Part shown: piece by piece, positions 1-61,938 of the stretch
How the letters are laid out: the number at the start of each line of letters is the position of its first letter
How positions within the stretch are numbered: position 1 is the first letter of the stretch
From: Azolla caroliniana
Lineage: Eukaryota > Plantae > Polypodiophyta
DNA: 64,000 nt
Assembly: GCA_043228905.1 (NCBI GenBank)
Contig: JBHGNT010000001.1
Coordinates: 7,130,001 to 7,194,000 of the forward strand
Reading direction: 5' to 3'
Notes under the pieces: model-generated
What the model was told of the DNA's origin: nothing
Database searches by the model: none
Seen by the model: the letters and a program-made list of their open reading frames with translations, nothing else
Program-made: the position numbers and the translations under genes

Positions 1-1641
1 GTTTGAATTCGAGATATTCCACCGACCCGGCATACAGCATGCGGTAGCAGATTATTTAAGCCGGTTACATTCCGACGAAACCTGTGACAAAGTACCGGAC
101 GAGTTTCCGAATGCTGAGCTATTTCGAGTCACTGCGGAAACGGCAACAGATGAAACGGTGGCACCAAAAGATAAGTGGCTAACGAATATACACCAATTTC
201 TGAGCACTGGATTGCCTCCGGAGGAGATGAACCGGGACGAGAGGAAGCGCCTGGCGGTACAAAACCGGCACTTCTGTTTATTACAGGACACACTTTACCA
301 CAAAGGTGTGGACGGTATATGGCGACGAGCAGTGCGCAACGACGAGAAAGAGGTAATACTACAGGAAGAACACTACAGAGTCACCGGAGGCCATTATGCC
401 GGGGATGCTACGGTTAGGAAGATATGGCAAAGTGGCCTATGGTGGCCAACTACATTGAAGGACGCAGTCCGGTATGCGAAAGAGTGTGATCTATGCCAGC
501 GAATGGGCCAGTCAACGGAACAAGCTAGGATGCCGCACCAGCCAATACTACCGCTAGAACCATTTCAGAAATGGGGACTAGATTTTGTCAGACCATTTAA
601 ACCACCGGCAATGAGAACTGGCAACCGGTATGTGATCGTCGCGACGGATTACTACACTAAGTGGGTAGAAGCGAAAGCCTTACGAGATAACACCGCGGCG
701 TCAACGACAAAATTCTTATACGGATGCATTTGGTGCCGGTACGAATGCCCCATAGAGTTGATAAGCGACCAAGAGGGCACTTTCTTGGACAGGTAGTGGA
801 GAGCTTGACGTCATTCTATGCGGTAGTTCATAAACGGAGCACCCCGTACTACCCACAAGCCAACGGATTAGCGGAGTCAACAAACAAAACGTTACAGAAT
901 ATCTTGCGCAAGATCGTCAATGAGAATCAGATAGATTGGAACACGAAGCTGCACAGTGTGCTCTAGGCTTACCGGACAACGTACAAAACAAGCATCCAAA
1001 CAACGTCGTTCCGGTTAGCATTCAGATTAGAGGCAGTCATGCCAATCGAATTCCAGGTACCAAGCTTACGGATTCAAATTAGGGAACAACTCAATGAAAA
1101 AGAATCAGAGGCAATTCGGTTAAAGGCTCTGTGTGAGCTAGAGGAACACCGACTGGCGAGCATCATGCACCTGGAATTGGAACAACGGCAATAGAAAGCG
1201 TTTGTAGATCGGCACCGGAAGGGAAACGAGAAAATGTTCGAAATTGGCAAGCCGGTACTAGTGTTCCAGACCCGGATGGGTAAAATGCCAGGCAAACTAC
1301 GGTTAAGATGGACCAGACCATACTGGATCACACACGAGTTCAATGGATCCTACCAGTTAGGGACACTTGCTGGCGAAGTGCAGGGTAAATGGGTCAACGG
1401 ATTTAGACTAAAGCCATACAAAGGACCTATGCCCAAGAACCCATTTGAACGAAGGACCGCCGCCGAATCAGACGCTGGCAGGCCAACCACGACAGCAACC
1501 CGTGAGGAAAAAGGCTACCACGAAGCCGATAAGGGGGAGCACGAGCCGGCAACCAGGGAAAGCATAACAACGGCAAACCGTCAAGAGGCCGGCAAGGTGC
1601 GCGATTCGGGTAAGGGTCCGACAGGACCGGAGAAAAATTAA
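1..1641 (+). pseudogene. Gypsy pol C-terminus (integrase zinc-binding, core and GPY-type domains), disrupted
   Basis: ORF pieces 158-796, 724-966 and 1234-1641 with a frameshift near 780 and in-frame TAG stops. Confidence 0.9.
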
Positions 1642-2986
1642 CCACACAAGTAACTTTACAAAAAAATACAAAAATACAAAATCAAATAAATCATGGAAAG
1701 GAGTGGTGGAAACGGCCATGCAAACGAGGAGTAAAGAGGCACGTCGAAAAGGTACGAGGGGCAATGCTATTATAGTACACAACCTGCACATGCGGAGGCT
1801 CGAAAAAGGCGCCAAGATCCAGAGAGAAAAACCCCCACGCATCGAGACCTTCTCCTATCGCGAACCAAGGAGAACAGACGCAAACAGATGCGTGAAGATC
1901 AATCGCCGAGAGCTCGCACACAGAGAACCCCCTCCCTCAGAACTTTCTCTCTCACACTCTCCCCACCACCAAACCTCGCCAACACTCTCCGACCTCGACG
2001 CAGAGATGGACTGCCAAACGTTGTCTGAAGCCGCCAACAAATGGCTACGGCAGCACGGACTGGAGGGTTTCTTAACGATCATGGAGGCGGTGCCACACAA
2101 GGAGGCCGAAAAGATTATCAAAAAAATCGACACAGAGGTGATCACGGAGGAGGCGATCCGTGCGTTAATAGGCCTTCCGGAGGGAGGCATCTACACGATC
2201 GACAATCCTACCTCCGAGCAACTCATCAAATATTTCGGTGAGTACTCTCTCGCCAACAAGGGCTACAGGACACAGGGCGGCGAAGATATGCTATTCCGCG
2301 AAATTGCCCGTGTGCTCCATGAGTTCGGCCACGTGTACCCTCAACCCCCCGTCATGCCTCAGAACCGAGCAGGCTTGATCATCGCAATGTACGAAGGGGT
2401 CAAGGTAGATTGGCCGGTGTTGATCGCCGATGGGCTGTGTACGGCGATTGATATAGTAAGAGGAAAGGACGGCAAGGAAGGCCGGAAAATATGGCATGCG
2501 GTGACGCAATGGCTCACCCTATTGGCGCCACCGATCGAGCCCGTCCAACCCAAGAAGCGGGGAAGAGCAACGGACGGCACCCCGAATCCTGCTTCGAAAC
2601 GGCAACAGTTGTTGGCCTCCAAGGCCACTAAGGGGAACACGACCGACGCAGAGAAGGTGGCAAAGGAATGCGCAAGCCGGAAGCGGCCGACGGACACACA
2701 CGAGGAGACACCGGCACGGCCCCTGACGAGCCCACTCCACCGACCGGTGCAGCAAGAAACGGACACCTTGGCAGCGAGAATGAATGTCGGGACTCAGGCA
2801 GAGGAAATGGAGGAAGAACCCACGGAACACCTCCAGCGACGGCCGGTGAAGAGCACCACTAAATCAGCCGGGAAGCGTTCGGACCCACAGAAGGATAGAA
2901 CGCCCGCAACTCACGCCAAGGGAGGCACCGAAACCGGTTCGGAGGGAACTGGTCACAGAAGTCCCTGCACAACAGGCAGCACCAGT

Positions 2987-3369
2987 TGTCATGATATGGC
3001 AAGACTCAAACCCATGACCTTATGCTACATGGGTCGAGCTCTTACCATTAGACTATGAATTGTAATTTGTAGGATATTATTTTCATTTATGCTTTATCAT
3101 AGAAAACTGATGTATATTCCAGATCTCGCACAAGGCATTGTTTTGAACCAAATTAGTTCAACGCCAGTCTTAAGCCTCCTTTTATAGTGTTTTTAGGAAT
3201 AATTCTGAAGCTTCTAGAATGTTCCAGAGAGATCTGGAATATACATCAGTTTTCTATGATAAAGCATAAATGAAAATAATATCCTACAAATTACAATTCA
3301 TAGTCTAATGGTAAGAGCTCGACCCATGTAGCATAAGGTCATGGGTTCGAGTCTTGCCATATCATGACA
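2987..3369. mobile_element. 383-bp palindromic (fold-back) insertion with TG..CA ends; solo-LTR-like or MITE-like
   Basis: 141-bp inverted arms 2987-3127 and 3229-3369 with one mismatch; 101-bp spacer; flanks CCAGT/CCGGC (5-bp TSD with two transitions); AT-rich inside a GC-rich ORF. Confidence 0.92.
3180..3224 (-). promoter_or_regulatory. Heat-shock element plus TATA box
   Basis: GAAgcTTCtaGAAtgTTC at 3207-3224 (four in-phase nGAAn units), 20 bp upstream of TATAAAA (3186-3180) on the minus strand. Confidence 0.7.
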
Positions 3370-5201
3370 CCGGCAAGTCCCGTAACTCAGGAGCCGGATA
3401 TACAAAAACCAACCGTCCCAGCCGGCCAAGACCAAGCAGACAAGGGGCGGCTAGCTGAAACACACTCAAAGCCGGAACGGCAAAGGGGTCAGCTAGCAGA
3501 ACATGAAGTGCAGCTCGACACAGTAAGGCGGGACTAGCCACCGGCGAGTGAACCCATTAACCAACCCTCCGTGCAAGCGCAACAACAGTGCACCGGCAGC
3601 CAATGGCTCCGGTGGATAGGAGAACAAATTGCCGGAGTAGTCGGATGCCATAGAGACGGAGGAAAGAGTGCAAACGGAACGGTTGCTCGTCACAACCGAT
3701 GAACTGGAGACGGCCCGGTCAAGGATCCGGTGCCTCAAACAAGACTTGGATCGGATCACGGGAGACATGGCCAAAATGGCCTTAACCGCAACGCATATCC
3801 ATGCACCGGTGACTCGGTTGATGAACAGAGGAATAAGACCCCAGAGACTCAAACTGTCCCGGAGAAAGATGCGGCGCAAGCCCAAGAGCTTGCGGAATTA
3901 CGAGATGAGCTCGCCGCACAAGAAGCATTACGGAGCCGCGAACGCGACTTGAAGAAGGCGGTCGAAGAAGAATTAAAAAAGACTGTTGAAAACCTTCACC
4001 GGGCAGAGGAAAACCTACGTAAAGGACATCATGCTTACGACCGGCTGAAGGAGGAAAAAGAGAAATTGCTGCAGGAAAAAGACAAGCTGAGACGGAAATC
4101 GAGAGGCTGAAGGAAGAGCTCCATCAACAGAAGGACCGGGAGGACCGCGCGCGCCGGCAGATCAACCAAAGGCTGAAGCAGAAGACCGATGATTTCAATC
4201 ATCTGCATCGGGACTACTAGCAGCTGGAGACGGAGTATAAGCAACAACAGGAACGGATGGTTGAGCTCCAGCAAGAAGTTGATAGGGCCACAACGGCACT
4301 CACCGAAGAACGAGCTGAGAGTTCCAAGCTATTGGAGGAAGCGGCGAACGACCAGATGGAGCTCCACAAACAAAACCATGAAGACAAGGAAAGAGCGACA
4401 ATGGTATTACAGAGGTTGCAAACAACCTATCAAACTCAATTGTCGCATTATAGGGAGCAGGAGGTGGACACGGTCCGGATCATCAAGCAATTGAAAGAAG
4501 AGCGACAAGCCGCAGAAAATAAATCACGGATGGGAGCCGAACGGATCCAGTGCATCCTCCGGTCATGGCTCACTAAGACCAAAAGCTTGATTGACGACAG
4601 CTCTGTGCGTTGGTGGGCGAAATGGGTGCAAAATACAGCGGAACTCCAACTACTCAGGGCGGACGTGGAAAACCGGCGGAAGGAGGGCGACGACTGTTAT
4701 ACGCTGACCTCAGAGGACTTCACCACCATAAGGGATGAGCTGGCTAAAGATTTCACAGCCCTGGTGGAGAAACAATTGGTACAGGTTTGGCAGCTCGTAG
4801 CTCAACTGGACGACGATCAGCTGGAGGCTCAAATCCAGTTCGAAAGCTATGAGCAGTCCCGGCTTCGAGAAGAAAAAGCGAGAAAGGCGGCAACGGTCAA
4901 CCTTAGTGATGAGGAACCGTCGTTGGTACTAGGACCAGACGGGGACCAGGCCTGGGTCAGTCAGCCAGAGACAAGTTCAACGAAGGAAACGTCGGTGCCA
5001 GAGCAACAAACGGAGCCGCAGCCCCAAATGGAGGAGGCACAAACGGAGCAGCCACAACCACAAAAGGAACAACATCAACAACAGATTCCCGACGAGCCAT
5101 TGGAAATTTTGGAGCAAAGCATTCTGGACATTTTGGACGAAGCGTAAAAGGGCCGGATAATGGGTTCGACGTACAAGGTACTGTCCCACGGGCGTGCCAT
5201 G

Positions 5202-8818: not shown

Positions 8819-9611
8819 TGTCTAGATATTACGCAAGTGCGTGTGGAAACGAGGCGGGACCGCGGGGGTCTCGAACCAAAGAGCAAGCGAGGGAGGAGGA
8901 AGAGAGAGAACCGGCTACGCAGGACCGGGGATACACAGGGACACGGCCCTTCAGCACGGAGAACGCGAACAGACACCGACACAGACAGATGCGAATGACT
9001 AAATATGTATATTAACAAAAATGGCTAACACGACTACAACCCTCGATGGGGCACAGGTTGGCTACAACCGAACAGGCCGGCGAACAGATGCCGATGCTTG
9101 TTCGCTTCGACGCACAAAGGGGGAGCAGGTCGGAGGTGCTGCCGGAAGCACTCGGGCGTTCCTCGAAACAGCGCGAGCCTCCTCGGAACCCTGCACAGAA
9201 AAGCTATGGAGCTCAAGAAGGAAGGAAACAGAGAGAGAAGCGTCCAGAAACGGTCTGGCAGCACTTCGTCCTCTCTGCGCGAGATGCCTGCAACAGCTCT
9301 TTCTTGCTCCTTATATAGGCTGACGAGCAGGCCGTCATGTCAGCTTTATTCCCTGTCCCTTTTGGACAGGGATCCGCTCCGTTCTTCACGCATCCGCGTA
9401 GTTACGCCGCCGACTCGTACAGTTCCTTAGCTCGCGCGCGCGACCGAAAAGACTGTTCGCGCGGTCTTTGTCTCCACTTGTGTTAGGGCCCGTTCCTGCC
9501 GATTATCCTCCTAATTCGCTTCTATGTACAACTTGGAGCGTGCGCGCGTGAAGAACCGGTTCCCACGCCTTGGTGCGCTGATTCCGCCTATGGACGGTTT
9601 TCTTCACGACA
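8819..9611 (-). repeat. 3' LTR of the nested Gypsy
   Basis: Direct repeat of 15333-16125; next to the PPT AGGTGGGGGCGGA (9624-9612). Confidence 0.97.
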
Positions 9612-9682
9612 TCCGCCCCCACCTAACCGCGCATCCTCCGGTATGCGCCAAGAGAGTTGGGACGGAGAAAACCGGCCCGTCT

Positions 9683-12600
9683 TCATTCCTCACCCGTCGG
9701 TTCTTCCTCGTTTTCGGATCGTTCATCACTGCTGACTAGGAGAGCCGGGTCTGGCTCGTCGTCGTGTCGCTTCTTGAACGCTTTGATCCGCTTCCCTGCA
9801 ACCGGTATCGCCATTCTCGTGCCGTCTAGTTCCGCCAGGTGATATGTCCCGTTGTCATTGGCGCTCCACACCACGTAAGGCCCGAACCACCTTCGTGCGA
9901 ACTTCCGTGTAGCTCGGTGCTGGTTGTCGAGGCTGCTGTCGTAGACGAGCACCCAGTCACCTTCGTCGATTTTCTTCGGTCGGAGCCGGTGCGTTCGGTC
10001 GAACCTGGCTTTGTTCTTTGTCCTCGCCACCCGGAGCTTCTCCGCAGCCAGTTCCACGTCCTCCGGTCTCCGCTCGAGCTGTCGTATACGCGCGGCCAAC
10101 AACTCCTCCCGGCTCATCTCGTCCCTCCAGTCGACCGTTGCCCACGAGGAGATCGTCCGTTCTATCGGCATGATCGGCTTCTGGCCGAACATGAGCTCCG
10201 TCGGCATGTACCCGGTTACCGAACTGTGCGTGGTCCGGTCTGCCCACAAAGCATAAGGTAGCAGCCGCGGCCAGTTACCGACTTGGCCTCCGCATGCTCG
10301 AACCAGCGCCTTGACGATCGGTCCGTGTCCGCGCTCCACCTTTCCATTCGCCTCCACCTTGTACGCAGTGGTGAGCGAGAGCTTGACTCCCAGCCGGTCG
10401 AACAGCTCCGCGGCTTCTTCGGCGTCCAACTCCCCTCGGTCAACCACGATCTTCCCGACGCACCCGTACCGGCATATCACGTCCTCGATTAGGAACCGAC
10501 ATACGGCCGCGGTCGTTTTGTTCGGAAGGGCCCGGCCTTCCACCTGGTTCGTCAGATCCTCCCGCGCTAGGACCAGGTACCGCATCTGTCCTACCCCCAT
10601 TGGCATCGTCACCAGATCTACCATCCATTTGAAGTGGATGGTCGGAGGGTACGTAGGGTGAAGCTCGTCCCGGTGTCGGACCACGGAGTGCATCTGACAG
10701 CTCTCGCAAGTTGTCACTAATCGATGCACGTCCCGGTACAGTCCCGGCCAGCAGTACTTCTCCTTTATCTTCTCGAACGTGGCCCAAGTTCCACGGTGTC
10801 CGGCCCAAGGGCTGTCGTGGTAGGCCGTCAGCAGCTCCTCCTGTTCTTCCTTCATCGCCACCACCCGGAGCGGAGCGCCGTCCCTCTTCTTCGGGTGCTT
10901 CCATAGATAGCCATCCCGGAGAAAGAACCGGTACGCTTTCTTCCGGATCCGGTTGGCCTCGTCTTTCGTCCATGACGCATCCGGCGCCATTGTCCTCAAG
11001 AACCCGCCGATCTGCAGCCACTCCCCGTCGTACTTGCTCGCGTCGAAGTCGTTAAGCGCCGGAGTGCTCGTCCCGCCGGTTGTTACGTATGCTGCCTCGA
11101 AGAAGTCCACGCCGACCTCTTCGTCCTCCGAAACCATGCCGCCCTCGTCATCGAATCTCGCCCTTGAAAGCATGTCGGCCATGGCGTTGTCTTTCCCGGA
11201 AATGTGTCGTATTTCCGGGTCCAGGGACTTGATGTACGCTATCCACCTGAGCATTGCCAGGTCCGGCGTCGCGCATCCGGAAACCATGCCGAGAATCGGC
11301 ATGCAATCCGTCTCTATGATTACCTCTGTCCCGATCAGATAGTCCTTGTCGGCCTTCACCGCCGAAACGATACCCCAGAGTTCGCGTTTAACCTGGGCGT
11401 ATCCTCGCTGCCGCTCACTGAGGACCTTCGCGCCGAATCGGATCGGGAACCGATTGCCGTCCTCGTCTTCTTGGTTGACGACCCACCCGATTCCGGTCGG
11501 ACTCGTGTCAACCGTTATGTACACTGGGGTGCCCTTCCTGTAGACGGCCTTTCGGAGCGCCGGTGCTGCCGAAAGAGCCTCCTTCAGCTTCCGGACCGAC
11601 TCCGTGTGCTTGTCTAGCCATTCGAATCTTCGCCCTTTCTTCAATAATCCGTACAGCGGCTCCGCGACGTGCGCGTAATGCGGGATCCATATGTGGTAGA
11701 AGGCGCATGCTCCCAAGAATCTTCGTACTTCCGTGACCGAGCTGCAATCAGGCTTCATCGCGGAGATGGCTTCTACCTTTGCCGGAGACGGTTTCCGGCC
11801 ATATGGTCCACATAAATGTCCGACCACCATGATTTCCGACTGCCCGAAGGCTGATTTCTCCCCCGAGAAGGTGAGCCTCGCAGCCTCTAGCCTTTGCAGC
11901 ACCTTCTCGCAGTCGTCGATGTGCGTCGCCACGAATCGCCGGCATCCGTCCGGCCCGATCGTCTCGTCCTTTTCTGCTACCGGGCATCCCTTGATCGGGA
12001 TGTCGTCCAGAAACGGCATGGTGATGTCCGGGATGCAGTCCCTCAGAACCTTGTTCATCGCATTCACCATGTGGGCCACCGAGTTGGTCCCTCCTTGCGG
12101 CAGCGTACACATCCGCACTAGGCCGAGGGGAGTTCGCATCGTCGTAATGTCTCTGCTCTCCACGGCTAGCTGGAACTGGTCGTACCCTGAGTATAGATCA
12201 CCGACCGAGTAAATCGACCTTCCGGCGAAGGCCTCCGCGAACTCGTCTATGGTCGGTCCAATCCCTGCGTTCCGAATGGTCACCCTATTGACCGGTTGCA
12301 GGTCCTGAATGAAGCGCAATGATCCGTTTTTCTTTGGTACAGTAAACCATCGGTTTGAATACGGGGCGCTCGACGGCTTGAGAATGCCCATATCAACTTT
12401 CTGCTTCAACAGCTCCATCAACTTCGGGATGTGAGCTCTCGGAACCGGAATTGGCTTGAGATTCCACGGTACATGCGGTACCGTGAATATCACCATCGGC
12501 TCTACGATCGTCGGGTTTACGCACCCGATTTCCTCCGGTGAGAATGCGAAGGCTTTCCCGTGCCTTCCGAGCATTCTCCGAAACCGGTCTTCCTCCGCCG

Positions 12601-13164
12601 GTAGTAGGAACCCGCCCCCACCGATTTTGAGCTCCCGGAGCGTCTCGTTGGTGAAGGTGTGTCCTATACAGGCCGGATCTCGTAAGCTGGGGTCCGATGC
12701 AACCCCTTTGATTCGCGACTCGCTGCCCTCCGGTAACGGTACCGCGACTGGCCTTACCTTCCGGTCCACAGTCTTGTACTTGGTGCTTACTCGGGCCGTC
12801 CGATCCGACTCGAGCCCCCGACCAAAGTCCGCGATGACTTCGTACATTTCTTCGGAACATACCGGTATCGTCCGGTCTTCGTTAAGGTCTTCTTCGACTA
12901 CCTTCCCCAGCATTCCCAAGGTGTCGTCGAAGGAGACCGCCTCCACGGCGCCACTGATTTCTTCGTCAGGGCCGAGAACTCCGCACGCTCGAAGTCTCCC
13001 CTCCGTCTTTGTTTTCTCTCGGCCGGCGATGCCGACCATCGTACATGCTCCGCTGTCGGAGAAGCAAAATTTCCTACCTATTGTACACGGTTTTATCGTA
13101 CAGATGTGGGGTTTTCCCGGAGCATCCGGACTGTCGCGGCCCCACGCCTTGGCAGTCCTCTCTA
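9683..13164 (-). CDS. pol: Pol (RT, RNase H, integrase), probably reached by -1 frameshift from gag-PR
   Basis: Uninterrupted frame from the GGATTTT site through the 1118-aa ORF: DLYSGYDQ, LPQG, FLDD, TVDTS, AMADMLSR, H..H..CESC, GKVERGH, WFGPY. Confidence 0.93.
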
Positions 13165-15288
13165 AAAATCCTCTCGGTTTTCGGAACCGAGGGAGTCGCG
13201 GTTACGTTCGTGGTTCGGCCGTACCGTCAGAAACTGGACCGAATGGCGCCCGTCTTGGCTTTTGACCCTCGCGTAGGCCGAACCATTGTCCAGCACCTTG
13301 GTCTCCATTTGCGCCGCCGTGATGTACGGCTCTCCCAGTATGACCGGATGCGAAGACGTCTCCTGCACGAAGAAGTGCTGGTCAATCTCGACGTCGCCGA
13401 TCTTGACTCGCACATTCGGACAGGCCCCGTGCAGTTCCTCGGTGGCGCGCGTTGCTGCCCTTATTTTCCACCCGTGCTTGGTGTTGATCGGCCATTTTCC
13501 CTTCTTATAGAAGTCCATGGACATCAAATTGATCTCCGATCCGTAGTCCACCAAAGCTATCACCGGTTCCTGGACATCGCCGATCTTCACCGGGGTTTCC
13601 GTGGTCGCTCGGGCCCAGTGTGGTCTCGAATAGTGGCTTTCCGCTCACTCGTCTCCCAGCGCCATGTCGTCTAGGTGCGTCGTCCGCACTTCCACCGGTC
13701 TTTCCGGTTCTGTCTCCGTTGACAGCCTCTTCCGTTTCACCAAGTCCACGATGGAGTCGTGGAACTCCTTCTTGGCGATTCCCAGCACCTCTCGTAACGA
13801 CAGCTCCACCTTGCTATCGAGGATCCGTTCCTCCAGGACCTTTCGTAAGTCCGTGGTCCTTTCTATCTCCGTCCCAAGACGGTACCCGCCCTTCTGGGGT
13901 TTATCTTGCGTACCGGCCCCGCCGGCTTCGTCCCGTCGTGGCCCGGACCGGGTCTCGTATCGTTGTGAGGGCCCGGTCGTCCCGGGTTTCCCCACCCGCT
14001 TCTCTTCTACCAGAGCCTCGTAGTTCTGGCAAGCGGCTTCCACGAAGCCCGTCTTTTCCTCGACCGGGTCGCTCCACCCGGTCATCTCCCGTACCCGTTT
14101 CTCCGCACGGTCCGATTCCTCCCTTTTAAGCCTTGCACCGGCAAGGCCTTCCAGCATTGTCGGCCAGAATCCGGCTTTGCTTTCCCTTCGGGCCTCGCCG
14201 CCCCCGACTCGAATGCCGGCCGACGCCGAGTAGTGGACGGTTTTCGCGTGTCGGGCCGCCGCCTCTTCCATCAACCTTTTCATACCACCTCGCCCGTCGT
14301 TTCGGCTCAGGGCCCTTCGGGTGTCGCTGGCATGCACCCGTCCTTCCCACAGGTACACCACCCTGTTCCTCAGCGCCTCCGCGAAGTCGCCGCAGTCCTT
14401 CCGAATGTGGCCGACTTCATCGCACCACATGCACCTGTTTCCTGCCGCCGGCCGTCGGTCACGAGCCGGTTCGCCACCTTCCCTTCGGGCTTGCGCGATT
14501 TGGAGGTCCTTTATCGCCCTCGTCAATTCCTCCAGCGCCGCTCCTCCGGTTGAGCCTCTGACTACGCCGGTCGAAGCCGAACCGGTTTCCAACCATTCTC
14601 GGGTCTCTTCCTTTCGCACCTGTGGCGCTGGTTCGAGCTTCCTTGCTGCGACCGAGCCCGACCCGGTTGCCCCGTTATCCGCCCATTCTCGCCGTTTGTC
14701 GAAACGGCCACAGACTTTCTTGACAGCCGCCCAGTCGGTAGTGAGCCCGTCTTCGGTTTCCAGCAAGAGGCCCACTTGCTCCCGATCCCGCTCGTCGACC
14801 GACTTCACAAACAGCAAGACCCGGCTCGTGTCCAGGATGGTTCGGTCGAGCGCCGAAAGGCGCGCAAAGTTTTCCTCGAACTCCCGGAGGAGTGCCGACG
14901 CGTTTCTTCCCTTCCCCGGGGACTCCACCCATTCCATGAACCTTCGCTTCGAAAGCTGGAGCGCGTCGTCCAGCCCGTATTTCTCTAGGAGCCGACCTTC
15001 GAACTCCTCCCAGGTACGGCTCTCCGCCCGCACCTCGAGCACCTCCGCATGGATGCTCGGCATCGCCACTCGGGGAAATCCGGCAAGACGCCTTTCTTCC
15101 GGAATGTCCCGCATCAGCATCTCTGCACCGTAGGACGCCAAATACTTCGTGGCATCCTTCCCATCGAACCGGCCGATCGTGCCGACGACCGCCTCAATGG
15201 CTCTGTCGAGGGCACCGGTGCCCTCGCGCGCGTTTACAATCCGGTCCACGGCCGAAGCCATGGCCTCTGCAAGATCCGACCCCCTCAT
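13162..15288 (-). CDS. gag: Gag-protease (CX2CX4HX4C knuckle, aspartic protease) with one in-frame TGA at 13645-13647
   Basis: CMWCDEVGHIRKDC; LVDYGSEINL and VILGEPY; ORFs 13645-15315 and 13162-13590 share a frame (GDE*AESH, likely TGG>TGA). Confidence 0.88.
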
Positions 15289-15310
15289 CTTCTGCTCTTC
15301 TGCCGCCTCC

Positions 15311-15328
15311 TTCACGTTGGGTTCACCA
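15311..15328 (-). promoter_or_regulatory. Primer-binding site complementary to tRNA-Trp
   Basis: Plus strand TTCACGTTGGGTTCACCA matches the plant cytosolic tRNA-Trp 3' end (TTCACGTCGGGTTCA-CCA, from memory) at 17/18; 4 nt from the LTR. Confidence 0.85.
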
Positions 15329-15332
15329 GAGA

Positions 15333-16125
15333 TGTCTAGATATTACGCAAGTGCGTGTGGAAACGAGGCGGGACCGCGGGGGTCTCGAACCAAAGAGCAA
15401 GCGAGGGAGGAGAAAGAGAGAGAACCGGCTACGCAGGACCGGGGATACACAGGGACACGGCCCTTCAGCACGGAGAACGCGAACAGACACCGACACAGAC
15501 AGATGCGAATGACTAAATATGTATATTAACAAAAATGGCTAACACGACTACAACCCTCGATGGGGCACAGGTTGGCTACAACCGAACAGGCCGGCGAACA
15601 GATGCCGATGCTTGTTCGCTTCGACGCACAAAGGGGGAGCAGGTCGGAGGTGCTGCCGGAAGCACTCGGGCGTTCCTCGAAACAGCGCGAGCCTCCTCGG
15701 AACCCTGCACAGAAAAGCTATGGAGCTCAAGAAGGAAGGAAACAGAGAGAGAAGCGTCCAGAAACGGTCCGGCAGCACTTCGTCCTCTCTGCGCGAGATG
15801 CCTGCAACAGCTCTTTCCTGCTCCTTATATAGGCCGACGAGCAGGCCGTCATGTCAGCTTTATTCCCTGTCCCTTTTGGACAGGGATCCGCTCCGTTCTT
15901 CACGCATCCGCGTAGTTACGCCGCCGACTCGTACAGTTCCTTAGCTCGCGCGCGCGACCGAAAAGACTGTTCGCGCGGTCTTTGTCTCCACTTGTGTTAG
16001 GGCCCGTTCCTGCCGATTATCCTCCTAATTCGCTTCTATGTACAACTTGGAGCGTGCGCGCGTGAAGAACCGGTTCCCACGCCTTGGTGCGCCGATTCCG
16101 CCTATGGACGGTTTTCTTCACGACA
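15333..16125 (-). repeat. 5' LTR of the nested Gypsy
   Basis: Direct repeat of 8819-9611; CCTATATAAGG TATA on the minus strand near 15825. Confidence 0.97.
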
Positions 16126-18530: not shown

Positions 18531-18664
18531 AATAACATCCTCTTTTGCTTTGTTCAAAGAAGAACTCCCCAAGGATGATATGCGTTTTAATATATATATA
18601 TATATATATATCAATTGTGGGATTCTTTTTTGGCTTATGGGAGGCAAAACTATGTTGTAGCTAG

Positions 18665-19288
18665 AGGGCATTAGGTAACTCTCTTTCAGCATGAAGTTAG
18701 CAACAACCTTTTTAGCTCCATACTTTTAAGAATAAAAAGTGATAAGCTCATATTTGTCACCTACATCTCAAACAATTGACATTCCATCACATTATTGAAA
18801 TCTTGTGATCAGAATTTTACAGGGCATTAGGTAACTCTCTTTCAGCATGAAGTTAGCAACAACCTTTTTAGCTCTATACTTTTAAGAATAAAAAGTGATA
18901 AGCTCATATTTGTCACCTACATCTCAAACAATTGACATTCCATCACATTATTGAAATCTTGTGATCAGAATTTTACAGGGCATTAGGTAACTCTCTTTTA
19001 GCATGAAGTTAGCAACAACCTTTTTAGCTCTATACTTTTAAGAATAAAAAGTGATAAGCTCATATTTGTCGCCTACATCTCAAACAATTGACATTCCATC
19101 ACATTATTGAAATCTTGTGATCAAAATTTTATAAGGCATTAGGTAACTCTCTTTCAGCATGAAGTTAGCAACAACCTTTTTAGCTCTATACTTTTAAGAA
19201 TAAAAAGTGATAAGCTCATATTTGTCGCCTACATCTCAAACAATTGACATTCCATCACATTATTGAAATCTTGTGATCAGAATTTTAC
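18665..19288. repeat. Tandem array, 4 x 156 bp, near-identical
   Basis: Units start at 18665, 18821, 18977 and 19133 (AGGGCATTAGGTAACTC..AATTTTAC). Confidence 0.97.
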
Positions 19289-20665
19289 ATAACCTACATA
19301 TACAACTAATTTGGGTGTCTTATATTTACCTTGGAAACACTTTGATGAGATCATGAGTGAAAGAAAGAGAGGATGGTAATGCTTATATTTGAATGCCCTC
19401 GCCTAAAATTTCAATTTGTAACGAAAGATACATTAGGTTCATTATCATCCTAGGGGGCCAAATATGACCGATTAGACCAAAGTGAAACATTTTTACTCAA
19501 TCTTGATGTTCAAGAATTTTACTAACGACAACAATGAGAAGTGGAGGGTACTAGTAGCACAACCTATTATCATGTTTTCAAAGTTTTATAAGAAACACGT
19601 GCCCTTCAAACCAAGCATCTCTTCCATATAATAGGCAGATAGTCAAACTAGGTGCTACTGAGAATTTTACTAAAAAGCTAGTGCGAAATGGAGACAGCTT
19701 GTAGCGAAATCTCTTGTCACGTCGTCGAAGTTTTGTGGGAAACAAATGCAATTCAAACACTTCCAACCCTAACAGCTCGTACACACAAGAGGCAAACGGA
19801 GAGACTCATCGATGATCTTGTCAGCCTTTGAATATTGAGATCGCCAAACTAAATTAATCGTGTAAACAAAGATGCTTACAAAGGGTGCAGGAGTTAGCCT
19901 TATGATATGTGTGCACATGTTGTGGTTCGATCTATTCATTTGGCCATATGACCTGATAGTTTCCATTCGATCATGAATGAGTGAAGAAAATAGATGTTAC
20001 ATTTCATTAATCATTACGTTTTGCTTATTATTTGGACTAAAAGATGGGTACTAGCAGAGTATCTATAGATTAACGCTATTATTTTCAAGATGTGGTTGCA
20101 TTTTTAAACCCCCCCCCCCCACCCCAATAAACTACCCTGTTATTAGATATTAGATGCTATATTTATGAATAGATAGATAGATAGCCCAAATTTAAAATGT
20201 GTCTTAATGTTGGATAATAGCCGAGACACTCAGAAAATTTATCAAGAAAAAGTAGGTTTTTTTTTTGTTTCCTTTTTCTGCAATTTTAAATAGCATAATT
20301 GTATATTTAATGAAAGCTAATGTGTGATGATAATTGAGACCTTCGAATTAACTGCTATATAGGGTATATTTAAAAAGGGCTAAAAAATCATATATGCATA
20401 TAAAATCTATCTAATCATTAGTTGGAAAGTTGGGTTTCTGTTTCCCTTTTCTTCTTTTTCTTTTTTGATAATAATGGAATAAATAAAAGAAAATATTTTT
20501 GTTTTTTGGAATCAGAAACAGAGCATGCCATGTATATATATATGTACAGTATTGCTCTGTTTCTGATTCAATGGGATCTAGATTAATGAAAGCTTCCCAA
20601 TTACAGCAATATTTTGTATCATCTATACATCCAAGCAGTTTTGCCTCGCTATATTTATAGATATA

Positions 20666-49034: not shown

Positions 49035-52000
49035 ATGGCTGCAACATTGTCATTCCTTCCACTATTTTTTGTAATGATTGAGGTAGCTCAGGCAGCTGCT
49101 GCAGGCGTCAGAACTTTTGATATTCTACCTTCAATGTACGCAAATACTTTACATAACCGATAAGAGGTGACTATTGTTCGATACAATTCAATATGTCATC
49201 AAATTCAGGTTATGTTCTACAGGCATGATTGGAGGAAGTTAACAGTTGGAACAGAGTTGTTTGGAGAGAAACTTGATTTGCAAAGGGGTCAATGCATCTA
49301 TGTTTTGGAAGGGCTTGAGCTTCCCAAGTCATATGAAGTGAAAATCTCCTATCCAGCTTCAGTATGAACTTTCCCATTTTCTGATGGCTGTATTTTTATT
49401 ATGCTCTTCATTTAGAAATGTTTTAGTTTTCTTTTGTTTATTTTTTCAATGTTGTATGTCAGTAGTTCTACCAGAACTATGAATCTGGATAAGGTTCACC
49501 TCATATTTTCTATGAACTCCCTGGATCATCCACAAGACAAACAAAATCGAGCTTGATCACAACCATTTTTACTTTCTCTGGGTTCACCCAGGTGTCCATG
49601 ATTGATGGTAAACCATGTACATTACTTTGACAAAGATGTCCAGCTCTTATTAAGTTCGTAATGGTTGATGGTTGACCACACACAGTACATAGATGAAGAT
49701 GTCGAATTCTTATCAAATCTGCAATCTATGCTTAATGGAACTTGAGGTTTATCACCGCATCAATGTTTTGGGGTCATTAGGTAATCATCCTTCTTGGTTG
49801 TAGGGAAATATGTGCAATAACATTTCTGAATCATATTATGGATGTAGCTTCCTCTTTTTTGTTTATGAAAGAATAGGTACCATCAAACAGGAAACTAGCC
49901 AAGTAGCACTACTTATCTATGTTGATCAATCCATTTAGCACTAGGACATTTTTGGATCTAGCCATTGGAGGAGTGAAGATGTCTCACAAATCCACTTCTA
50001 TACATGATGGTAAGCTAGGGCTAGCTAGGTCAAGGGACTATGTAACATACCTTCATTTATAGGAGGCATGATCTCTATAGGTACTTTTTGTTTACAGTCC
50101 ACTTTTTGTACTTTCATCTTGGTTCTTGTGCTAACCTAATGCAGCACCATCTCTCACCATCCGTGCTCCATTCCTTTCAGAAATTTTGCTAGTTATACTT
50201 TCAAATGCAATAGTTGTTTCTATTAACCTTGGAGAGATGTAAGGGCAATTCCAGGATGCTCAATGCAAAAGCTTGATTGAACACTTAGATACAAAACCAT
50301 GGGAGTAAAAATGGAGTCATGTAATGATCCTGAGGCCATACTATATTGGTTCTTGTGCTAACCTAATGCAGCACCATCTCTCACCATCCGTGCTCCATTC
50401 CTTTCAGAAATTTTGCTAGTTATACTTTCAAATGCAATAGTTGTTTCTATTAACCTTGGAGAGATGTAAGGGCAATTCCAGGATGCTCAATGCAAAAGCT
50501 TGATTGAACACTTAGATACAAAACCATGGGAGTAAAAATGGAGTCATGTAATGATCCTGAGGCCATACTATATTGGTGTGGTGCACTCTCACCACTGATG
50601 CCCTTGGACCTCATGGTTCACTGCATTATGTATTGGGAATGCAGTCAACCTTGATGAGAGAGTTATTGATCTATTAAGCTCATCACCAATGCCCTAGAAG
50701 GAGACAAGCTGATCCAGTCCTCATCTCATGCTTCCAGGAGGGCATTCTAAGACTACCTGCTACAGGCCCTGGATGAGGATGAGTTTTTAATTACCAGGTA
50801 CTTCAGATATGCTTACAGAGCCACTGTAAATGCTTTACGACGACTACTTGCTAGTTTCTTGTATCTCACTTTGGTAGTGATGCCGTATATAATTTCTGTT
50901 TTAGTTTTGGCTGTTGGGGGAACTTATTACTCTTCAAGTAAAGGATGCAATCTTTTTACACTGTCTTCTATTTAGTTTATTTGAATTACTTAACATTTTG
51001 TAGAGGGCTTCATGTATAGTTTATTTGTGTTCAACAGCAGAGATAGCTCAATATTTCTCATAATTATTGTTTGATTTAATTGCTTCCTAGATTTTCTTTT
51101 TATGATTGTGCAAATGATGCAGTAACCATATGGTTGCGATACGGGTTGAAATGGGATGCACGTGTCAAGATTTTTGCCATGGAAAAGTTTAAAACATATT
51201 TCAGTGTCAAATAGAAACCTTTCCTTTGATTTTTCTTTCGATTTAGTTTCAATTAGAGTTTGTTTTGTTTAATATATTGTAGATACCAGCAAGTTTCACC
51301 ATTGATCTTCTCAAAGGAGGTCCTCTTCAAGCCATACGTGGTGGGAGGAGACTTTTAAATACAGAGAAGTTGATGTTCAGAGCTGATGAAAGCCAAGGTG
51401 CAGAGGTATGATTTTATACCTCCTTTGTACTGATAATTAAATTTCGAATGAAAACAATATATCTTGATCCAAATCCTTCAGTAACTCACAGGTGTTGAAT
51501 GGGATGCTTTCAGCTCGTGTATTGGTTAGTGTGGAGCCAGCTGGTGTTCTTACTAAGCCACACACAAGAGATCAAGCTTTTGTCATCTTCAACATAAGTA
51601 TGTACTCTGGTTTTCAATGTCTTTAATATTTGTGGACTATTATTCTCTGTTCGAACATGGGGAATTTTCTGGGGCTTTCTTTAGGCTTTCAGCACCATTG
51701 CCTAATGAATGCTAGAATTATCAGCTGATCCTGTTGTATAGCCTCATTTAGCTCTATGCTGTGCACATACAAACTCTGTTTCTCCTTTTGAATGGCTAGT
51801 TAGTTATGGGCTCTTCTGGTGTATAGATATTGGACCATATTCATTTTTACCTCTTCATATTGTGTTGTATTTTTGATGATTGTCCCATGATCATGACCAT
51901 TACTGGCGGAACTATTCAGACTAAATAGTACAGGAAAACTCTTAAATACTCCTGAGTTTTTCTTTGCTTCCCTGAATACCACTTAGTTTTCATTATTTTC

Positions 52001-60814: not shown

Positions 60815-61938
60815 TTATGGCTCATCCGGAGATGATGGCAAGATGTGACCACAATTCTTGCAACAACCAGCATTTGAGTCTGTTGATCTAAATGTCAAGG
60901 CATCGCAATGCAAGCATCGAATCTTCTCTGTCGCACATATTGGCAACTGCCTCCTAGCTCGACTTGCACCTCTTTGCATTTTTCGGGTGTGTGCCAATAA
61001 GATCTTGTGAAATGTTGTCTGATGCGCCTCTCTTCGCACCAATCGCTTGCTTCTGCCTTATGGATCCACCGTCTTCTCGATTGGTTGGTTTCAGTGCACC
61101 AACGTGATATCCATCCTTGTAAAAACTCCTCGACCAACATTTGTATAGTTTTCATCACGTAAAAGCCACAATCCCAACCATTTGGCCGAGTTGGGATGTG
61201 CAATTCGTGATATCGACCCTCAAACACAATGGCGCGGTCTAACAGTTCACTAGAAATGACCCGAATCGCGATCTCTGCAAGACTCCGCATGTTGCTAGTT
61301 GCCACGTTGTGTAGTAGATCGCAAAAGACTACTTTGCTGGTAAGCTTAGAAACTTTGTGCCACATCTTTGTCCACAACACCCAATGACCCTGAACCACGA
61401 TCGGAATGAAGATGAAATCACGCTCATCCACCTTCCCAAGGATGTCTTGCTCCTTCGTCGTTTGCTTGTGTAGTTGCACCCATAGTGGGTCGACTACGGT
61501 GAATCGTTCTGTCACCTTAGGTGGTAGTGAGTACTCCATCCATATGGTGAATAATGTCATCATCCATGTGGATACCATTTCTCCATCCTTGCACATTGTC
61601 TCAAGTTCTGACTCTATAACGTCAACGGCCATATCGAGTCGTGCACAGGTAAGTTGGTACATGTATGCATAGAAACATGCATGCATCATGGATCTCTCCA
61701 CACGTAATGTCGATTAGTAGGATACAATTTGACAAACACAAATAAACAACTTGAAAAAATGTTTGTCTGGTGTTTGGATCCATGTTTTGACGGCCTTGGC
61801 ATGCTCAATTTGTATCGTGGCCACATCCCATGCAACGTCATCTGAATCTAATGTTATGGGGACAACATTAATGTTTGACTCGACCTCCTTCTGTCTAACT
61901 TGCATTTTCGGCGGTCTCCGTCTTAGTGGCGTGGACAC
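60815..61938 (-). pseudogene. Ulp1/peptidase C48 domain followed by a CxxC..CxxC zinc ribbon, transposon cargo
   Basis: FIFIPIVVQGHWVL, FCDL, PTRPNGWDCGFYVM (His/Asp/Cys triad; oxyanion Gln replaced); CLHC..CKNC lies in a shifted frame; probably spliced. Confidence 0.8.

Follow-up and report, generated by a model that had tools for sequence, protein, structure and literature searches.

Helenus elements are non-autonomous TRIMs of 311-1263 bp, described by Kojima 2024, which include one family in the non-seed plant Selaginella and whose boxes are thought to come from a SINE2 insertion (PMC10886601). Like the locus reported here, they hold tRNA-derived A and B boxes inside the LTR without forming a functional tRNA (PMC10886601). 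As far as the accessible text and two LTRs of its supplement go, these boxes lie on the LTR sense strand and the PBS is complementary to a tRNA, whereas here the boxes are antisense and the element is self-priming by prediction; also, Helenus elements are short and without coding sequence, while the element described below has about 5.7 kb, Gag, Pol and a TATA box (PMC10886601). Set beside Helenus and TRIMp3, as these are defined in the accessible text, it shares the A and B boxes of the LTR and differs in size, autonomy, orientation and in a PBS that is not tRNA-complementary. The Helenus survey, in its accessible part, analysed only elements under 1000 bp, and other Repbase LTRs hold tRNA-like pieces (PMC10886601); therefore, similar larger cases may sit undescribed in Repbase. 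In Cassandra, motifs for Pol III that stem from the gene of a small RNA are also found in a plant LTR, as here. However, they are 5S-derived, the element is non-autonomous and its transcript runs from the start of the 5' LTR to the end of the 3' LTR, which is out of reach for a cassette placed antisense at the tip of the LTR (both points from the part of PMC10886601 that was accessible).

Chromoviruses of the Tcn1 clade (Tf1/sushi group) resemble the element in having Gag, PR-RT-RH-IN-chromodomain, a self-priming PBS (predicted here), a PPT and an LTR of about 440 bp; for their LTR the accessible text mentions TATA and CAAT boxes and no tRNA-like or Pol III motif (PMC6317226, PMC2864245). Foamy-virus U3 regions carry A/B-box motifs overlapping a hairpin in an autonomous retroelement, as in our case, but those hairpin genes have terminators and demonstrated miRNAs and, in the text at hand, are not called tRNA-derived, while the element here is known from its DNA sequence and has no conserved terminator (PMC3993851). 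At ETC sites and tDNA insulators the B box is kept while the A box and the tRNA structure decay, in a similar way as found here; those sites, however, are described as chromosomal and not as belonging to the end of a mobile element, and ours is a putative one (PMC11346459, accessible part). In the literature outside subscription journals and Repbase, with the Helenus supplement covered in part, we found no antisense tRNA-like motif in chromovirus LTRs; also outside subscription journals and Repbase, no paper was found that contains three short motifs of the family LTR.

The insertion and its parent chromovirus

The window (the whole 64,000-nucleotide stretch of Azolla caroliniana DNA analysed) contains a 383-bp insertion that is a rearranged LTR piece of an autonomous, Tcn1-like chromovirus, whose normal LTRs carry a single antisense cassette each (U3 nt 16-69). 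The features of the insertion and its site are:

1568-2986, plus strand: extra ORF of the host Gypsy, downstream of the integrase (2-796); site of the insertion
2982-2986, plus strand: CCAGT on the left side, possibly one half of a 5-bp target duplication that has decayed
2987-3369, no strand assigned: the entire 383-bp insertion, bounded by TG...CA, which is the 5' portion of a chromovirus LTR folded back on itself (BLAST against the complete L016 LTR)
2987-3127, plus strand: left arm, second copy of LTR nt 1-141 (BLAST against L016)
3055-3002, minus strand: mirror copy of the cassette, whose B box has the CpG-decay mismatch (3008)
3128-3180, plus strand: LTR nt 196-248 with the predicted R start, ending in GCCTCCT, the likely fold-back point (BLAST against L016)
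3174-3369, minus strand: U3 (LTR nt 1-197), colinear with the LTR in its normal form and 89% identical to that of L016
3180-3186, minus strand: TATAAAA box, predicted Pol II promoter, facing away from the tRNA-like cassette
3301-3311, plus strand: A-box-like motif TAGTCTAATGG, tRNA positions 8-19, antisense to the LTR
3308-3360, plus strand: rod hairpin that overlaps part of the A box (its 3' half) as well as the B box (z -6.3)
3336-3354, plus strand: variable loop AGGTC (3336-3340), 5' side of the T-stem and B box, antisense, LTR nt 16-34
3344-3354, plus strand: B box GGTTCGAGTCT
3362-3364, minus strand: TGA at LTR nt 6-8, the pol stop in full elements (the pol ORF ends 5 nt into the LTR in L006, L045, L064 and L032)
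3370-3374, plus strand: CCGGC on the right side, possibly the other half of the decayed target duplication

With respect to the L016 LTR, the insertion consists of LTR 1-141 and LTR 196-248 followed by the reverse complement of LTR 197-1, and LTR nt about 142-195 are absent after the left arm. The two arms (2987-3127 and 3229-3369, 141 nt each) are 99.3% identical and the insertion is 68-89% identical to 40 relatives. The only mismatch between arms, A at 3008 against C at 3348, falls in the B box of the mirror copy as the first-pass annotation had pointed out; its position is correct, but since it is a CG-to-CA change at one of just two CpGs in the arm, its occurrence in the B box means little. 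In 30 loci the sequence extends 300 nt or more past the start of the LTR; none of them has a second inverted cassette, the normal R hairpin being present in 23/30 and the other 7 being truncated or rearranged. The switch point between arms falls in a 7-nt inverted repeat, AGGAGGC/GCCTCCT, which normal LTRs also have around the R start, and whole-genome contigs show two junctions between opposite strands, 3127 with 3228 and 3128 with 3176, as in the normal LTR order. The two-armed form is not a form of the family and likely results from a one-off fold-back. A cassette in each arm of a small unit, as initially annotated, gives way to a rearranged LTR of an autonomous chromovirus, and thus to one cassette duplicated once. 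A MITE or an inverted-repeat DNA transposon was also considered and rejected, no copies with terminal inverted repeats having been found (0/30).

The duplication ends exactly at TG and CA, from which we infer a folded-back plus-strand cDNA. This cDNA would have folded back, on a single occasion, at the AGGAGGC/GCCTCCT stem; the resulting palindrome would have integrated through its two U3 ends, and 54 nt would have been lost later. The palindromic copy would thus illustrate how a cDNA, once folded back, can integrate through U3 ends on both sides. Between its two flanks, CCAGT and CCGGC, only 3/5 letters agree. No empty site is present in the public-run contigs examined, which may belong to other species than that of the window, and a comparison of the host flanks with the family loci gave no useful match.

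The host Gypsy itself has no purine tract at 5151-5199, before its 3' LTR (starting at about 5200), and this stretch instead holds a split copy of the 3' part of a tRNA ending in GCCA. The rest of the window contains a young full-length Gypsy on the minus strand (8819-16125), beside a Copia, with 793-bp LTRs that are 99.4% alike and long Gag and Pol frames; a tandem array of units of about 156 bp, 97-99% alike (18662-19289); a 227-bp tandem duplication, 99.6% alike (50116-50577); and a frame for an Ulp1-type protease (Pfam Peptidase_C48) on the minus strand (60898-61713), probably transposon-borne.

The contigs used come from four public runs of three coded organisms, which may be other species than that of the window. 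Scanning by pattern yielded 70 loci, of which 67 are copies of the family; L021, L026 and L046 match the 19-nt search pattern only and were dropped. Family LTRs measure 391-467 bp and end in GACA or close variants, with the TATA box at LTR 185 in L045, L023 and L056 and a mean identity of 0.91 over columns 181-193. A purine tract precedes the terminus in contigs of 4/4 runs, the PPT stands directly before the LTR in 10/67 family loci, and in 9 family loci a Pol with a C-terminal chromodomain lies directly upstream of the LTR. L006 holds, between family LTRs, frames for Gag (431 aa) and Pol (1203 aa) with the order PR-RT-RH-IN-SH3-Chromo, and the size of the element is about 5.7 kb. In 3/3 loci the LTR end is followed by the PBS and then by Gag. 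The R start is predicted about 30 nt past the TATA box, and the PBS is predicted to pair with it over 12 bp (about -13.5 kcal/mol); in the window, the stretch predicted to pair with the family PBS for self-priming is 3150-3161. At 3150-3163 (family LTR nt about 205-235) the self-primer reads GGTTCAAC, which resembles the T loop of a tRNA, perhaps by coincidence, and lies within a small palindrome.

Matching 5-bp flanks were found at 0/6 complete LTRs, all of them from short-read contigs that are likely chimeric. A quick RT tree, which carries long-branch warnings and has no named Tcn1 row, places the element with fungal and vertebrate rows, apart from the seed-plant rows. No relatives were found in viral or prokaryote collections by pattern or by protein, and a single contig of depth 2.8 in a run presumed to be RNA carries no evidential weight. 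A SINE2 was rejected, as the cassette is not a free-standing head-body-tail unit flanked by target duplications of variable length and ends at the same LTR terminus in 67 loci. Two further loci deserve mention. In L012 the family LTR breaks into TTTAGGG telomere-like repeats about 145 nt after the LTR start. In L023, a tRNA-Arg(TCT)-like gene with an encoded CCA end (1944-2019) directly follows a partial Gag, and may be a retrotransposon-borne tRNA copy or the product of a chimeric contig.

The tRNA-like cassette and its conservation

T8 and T54 are 45 nt apart, and 15 nt separate the end of the B box from the terminus (3369), in agreement with the tRNA spacing and the position reported in the first-pass annotation. 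With a sequence-only tRNA profile the right cassette scores 20.6 bits and the left one 14.1, while the background does not exceed 7.1 bits (6,346 tiles of the window) or 6.6 bits (2,000 dinucleotide-shuffled sequences). This profile was built from 23 short phage tRNA genes, the 3 containing a matching 18-mer being excluded; it gives 23.9-35.4 bits to 4 held-out tRNA or tRNA-like genes, and in 56 family cassettes the median is 14.7 bits in antisense versus -0.8 in sense. Also, a blastn search of the 80-nt end against phages matched 11 records, each weakly (E 2-8), and 10 of these 11 match at the 18-19-mer of the variable loop and T-arm. The four matches that were inspected correspond to two annotated tRNAs and two unannotated tRNA-shaped stretches.

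Neither the window cassette nor two family copies matched the Rfam tRNA model, even with E values up to 10 allowed, while ARAGORN reported 0 tRNA genes in the window and, in 60 loci, 1 unrelated tRNA-Arg-like gene. A tRNA gene was rejected on these grounds, with neither a cloverleaf nor a covariance-model score by Rfam and ARAGORN. Likewise, an Rfam match to MIR2646 is far below threshold and is explained by the long inverted repeat. In this sense, the tRNA-derived nature put forward at first holds for the sequence, through the profile, the phage matches and the L035 end described below, and fails for the cloverleaf. Taken at this level, the data support that the cassette derives from tRNA sequence, and its origin is likely the capture of a tRNA gene or of a SINE head.

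Column statistics within the family were taken from 60 copies, after dropping 7 same-flank duplicates and excluding the first 19 columns, which are fixed by the search. The box columns have a mean pairwise identity of 0.824, and U3 columns 20-193 one of 0.839 (p=0.66). Of 47 copies, 22 retain both boxes intact, and the CpG of the B box is altered in 18/60 copies and the other CpG in 10/56. Changes within the family are mostly post-insertion decay and, for this reason, the box statistics say little on selection. Changes shared between copies are slightly more informative: T8 is invariant in 46/46 ungapped copies while position 12 shows all four letters, and positions 9 and 11 of the cassette vary mostly within R and Y. 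In an abundant subfamily G10 of the A box is replaced by A (L045; 16% of depth in X1, contig depths not being taken as copy numbers). In the whole-genome contigs of three runs no variant of at least 3% is listed for 3337-3369. Conservation is about 0.90 over LTR nt 20-63 versus 0.68-0.73 at nt 64-100.

Conservation between families can be followed through Pol, given that 25 relatives read into their own LTR. In 24/25 the protein continues as TRTSNL or I(R/Q)TLD, which are translations of the antisense B box and variable loop (family A gives TRTHDL), and the T-stem implied by these tails differs. The chance of the tail motif is 0.008 per 10-residue stretch, for a motif that was defined after the tails had been seen. 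The 24 motif-bearing proteins fall in three 90% clusters of one subclade, with Pol 53-55% identical to that of L006, and lie across the deepest split of the clade in the quick tree. P0260 and several more distant tails are without the motif; likewise, among 149 more distant proteins 2 read at least 9 residues into a putative LTR with a looser pattern, neither of them with the motif.

At the nucleotide level, L055 (250-800, minus strand) holds an LTR of about 407 bp from a different chromovirus family, after a chromodomain and a PPT. It has a decayed antisense B-box motif, no A box that we could see and its own hairpin after the TATA box, and shares with the LTR of family A only one 20-nt block. 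Two candidate LTR ends, both picked by the tRNA profile, start with TG. The one in L035 (3541-3680), inside a family LTR, bears an antisense unit resembling a tRNA, in which a canonical A box and the acceptor stem are preserved but the anticodon arm is shortened, and reaches 26.0 bits with RF00005 (E 0.00069), below the gathering score of 29. The one in L064 (210-280) bears an antisense variable loop and B box, with no A box seen. The L035 end is the best lead to the ancestral cassette. Additionally, outside the main matches 3/3 cassette-like hits of at least 9 bits have TGACA at their end, within 45 nt (background 6.6%); one of these hits belongs to an old copy of the family. The motif lies some 7 to 30 nt away from TG. 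At the LTR tip of distant families the antisense B box and variable loop appear to recur, and this, like the tRNA score of the L035 end, looks like a new observation. A covariance-model score and a conservation of the boxes above their surroundings were the two signs whose absence, as proposed at the outset, would refute a Pol III cassette, and neither was obtained for the window copy and its family; despite this, the apparent conservation in distant families would keep the TFIIIC/Pol III idea alive.

Possible functions of the cassette

The reading that we favour, tentatively and giving it nearly an even chance, is that the tRNA-like cassette, whose probable source is a captured tRNA gene or SINE head, offers TFIIIC a place to dock and is not a promoter of the genome. 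We favour it because an antisense promoter cannot make the genome, the predicted self-primer and the PPT do the priming, and the terminator is unconserved. Since the cassette is antisense to the Pol II transcript, it cannot serve for the synthesis of genomic RNA as in Cassandra, and the tRNA analogue of Cassandra proposed in the first-pass annotation is not what we find; moreover, such an analogue has already been published as Helenus (PMC10886601, accessible part). The priming role that had been suggested is also unlikely, since a normal PPT and a PBS predicted to be self-priming are present in the family.

Heterochromatin is the presumed target of chromodomain integrases, and B-box boundaries are known from fission yeast. 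TFIIIC at the B box would set a boundary at the outer edge of the LTR, and this boundary would help the Pol II promoter, which lies about 170 nt further in, to stay usable in heterochromatin; transcription by Pol III may or may not follow. According to the accessible text of PMC11346459, TFIIIC sites without Pol III have been described and methylation impairs TFIIIC binding; therefore, any effect would be confined to young or unmethylated copies. Several observations speak against TFIIIC docking. The box columns are no better conserved than other U3 columns and G10 of the A box is lost in the abundant subfamily. The terminal 35 nt that hold the B box are perhaps constrained by PPT processing, the pol stop and the integrase, and the evidence from distant families is mostly protein translation and comes in effect from two lineages.

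Another explanation, which we regard as unlikely, is that the cassette works as a Pol III gene whose product, a short hairpin RNA, extends outward beyond the tip of the LTR. When made from the 3' LTR, such an RNA would be complementary in sense to the PPT and the last part of pol; it might restrain the element's copy number or enter small-RNA pathways. The A box at tRNA spacing, with T8 kept in 46/46 copies while position 12 varies, would agree with it, and so would an AT-rich stretch and a CAA upstream of the cassette (35/43 copies), as described for plant tRNA genes (PMC3082873, accessible part), the strong hairpin, and the existence of Pol III hairpin genes in the U3 of foamy viruses (PMC3993851, accessible part). 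However, the terminator is unconserved, the first TTTT being found 37 nt past the LTR end in 5/9 copies and 392-884 nt in 4/9; the A box is broken in the abundant subfamily and is not seen in the L055 or L064 ends; and no compensatory change occurs in 15 hairpin pairs across 45 copies. The motif might instead be at present a sense-strand cis signal beside the PPT, involved in plus-strand priming, pol termination, packaging or integrase binding, an option that we also consider improbable. The hairpin folds on the sense strand too (-25 to -30 kcal/mol), and nt 20-63, a stretch that starts right after the PPT and the pol stop, are better conserved than nt 64-100. Nevertheless, the other arm of the hairpin is missing in the L055 LTR and differs in L035 while the letters of the B box persist, the distance to the end varies, and the persisting letters match exactly a tRNA B box and variable loop.

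A further option is that a SINE or tRNA once inserted into U3 and left the cassette as a relic without function, which every LTR simply carries along; this we judge very unlikely. The absence of excess conservation within the family and the loss of the cloverleaf are what a relic would display, and tRNA-like pieces are found in many Repbase LTRs (PMC10886601, accessible part), but the letters of the B box persist across families that have 53-55% Pol identity and otherwise dissimilar LTRs. Finally, it is hardly credible that the insertion represents a non-autonomous inverted-arm family or TRIM with a tRNA-derived promoter driving its own transcription as in Cassandra: in this copy there are indeed TG...CA at the ends, inverted arms of 141 nt and perhaps a duplication of 5 bp, yet the second arm occurs in 0/30 loci, the relatives are LTRs of a coding element, the cassette is antisense and the contigs show the normal LTR order.

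LTR promoters of tRNA or 5S origin are described for short non-autonomous elements, whose genome is made by Pol III. A coding element cannot use a Pol III promoter for its genome, and here the cassette faces backwards; its retention in that orientation across distant families calls for another function. In a broader sense, which we put forward as a rather doubtful possibility, a whole lineage of autonomous self-priming plant chromoviruses would carry a tRNA-derived B box at every outer LTR edge, as a portable TFIIIC chromatin boundary or insulator that would arrive in heterochromatin with each new insertion, or else as an antisense Pol III unit. If the cassette were a relic or a sense-strand signal, the finding would amount to a modest annotation note. 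If it is a TFIIIC site, it would provide a testable answer to how chromoviruses that target heterochromatin stay transcribable, and very many B boxes would be scattered through the genomes of their hosts.
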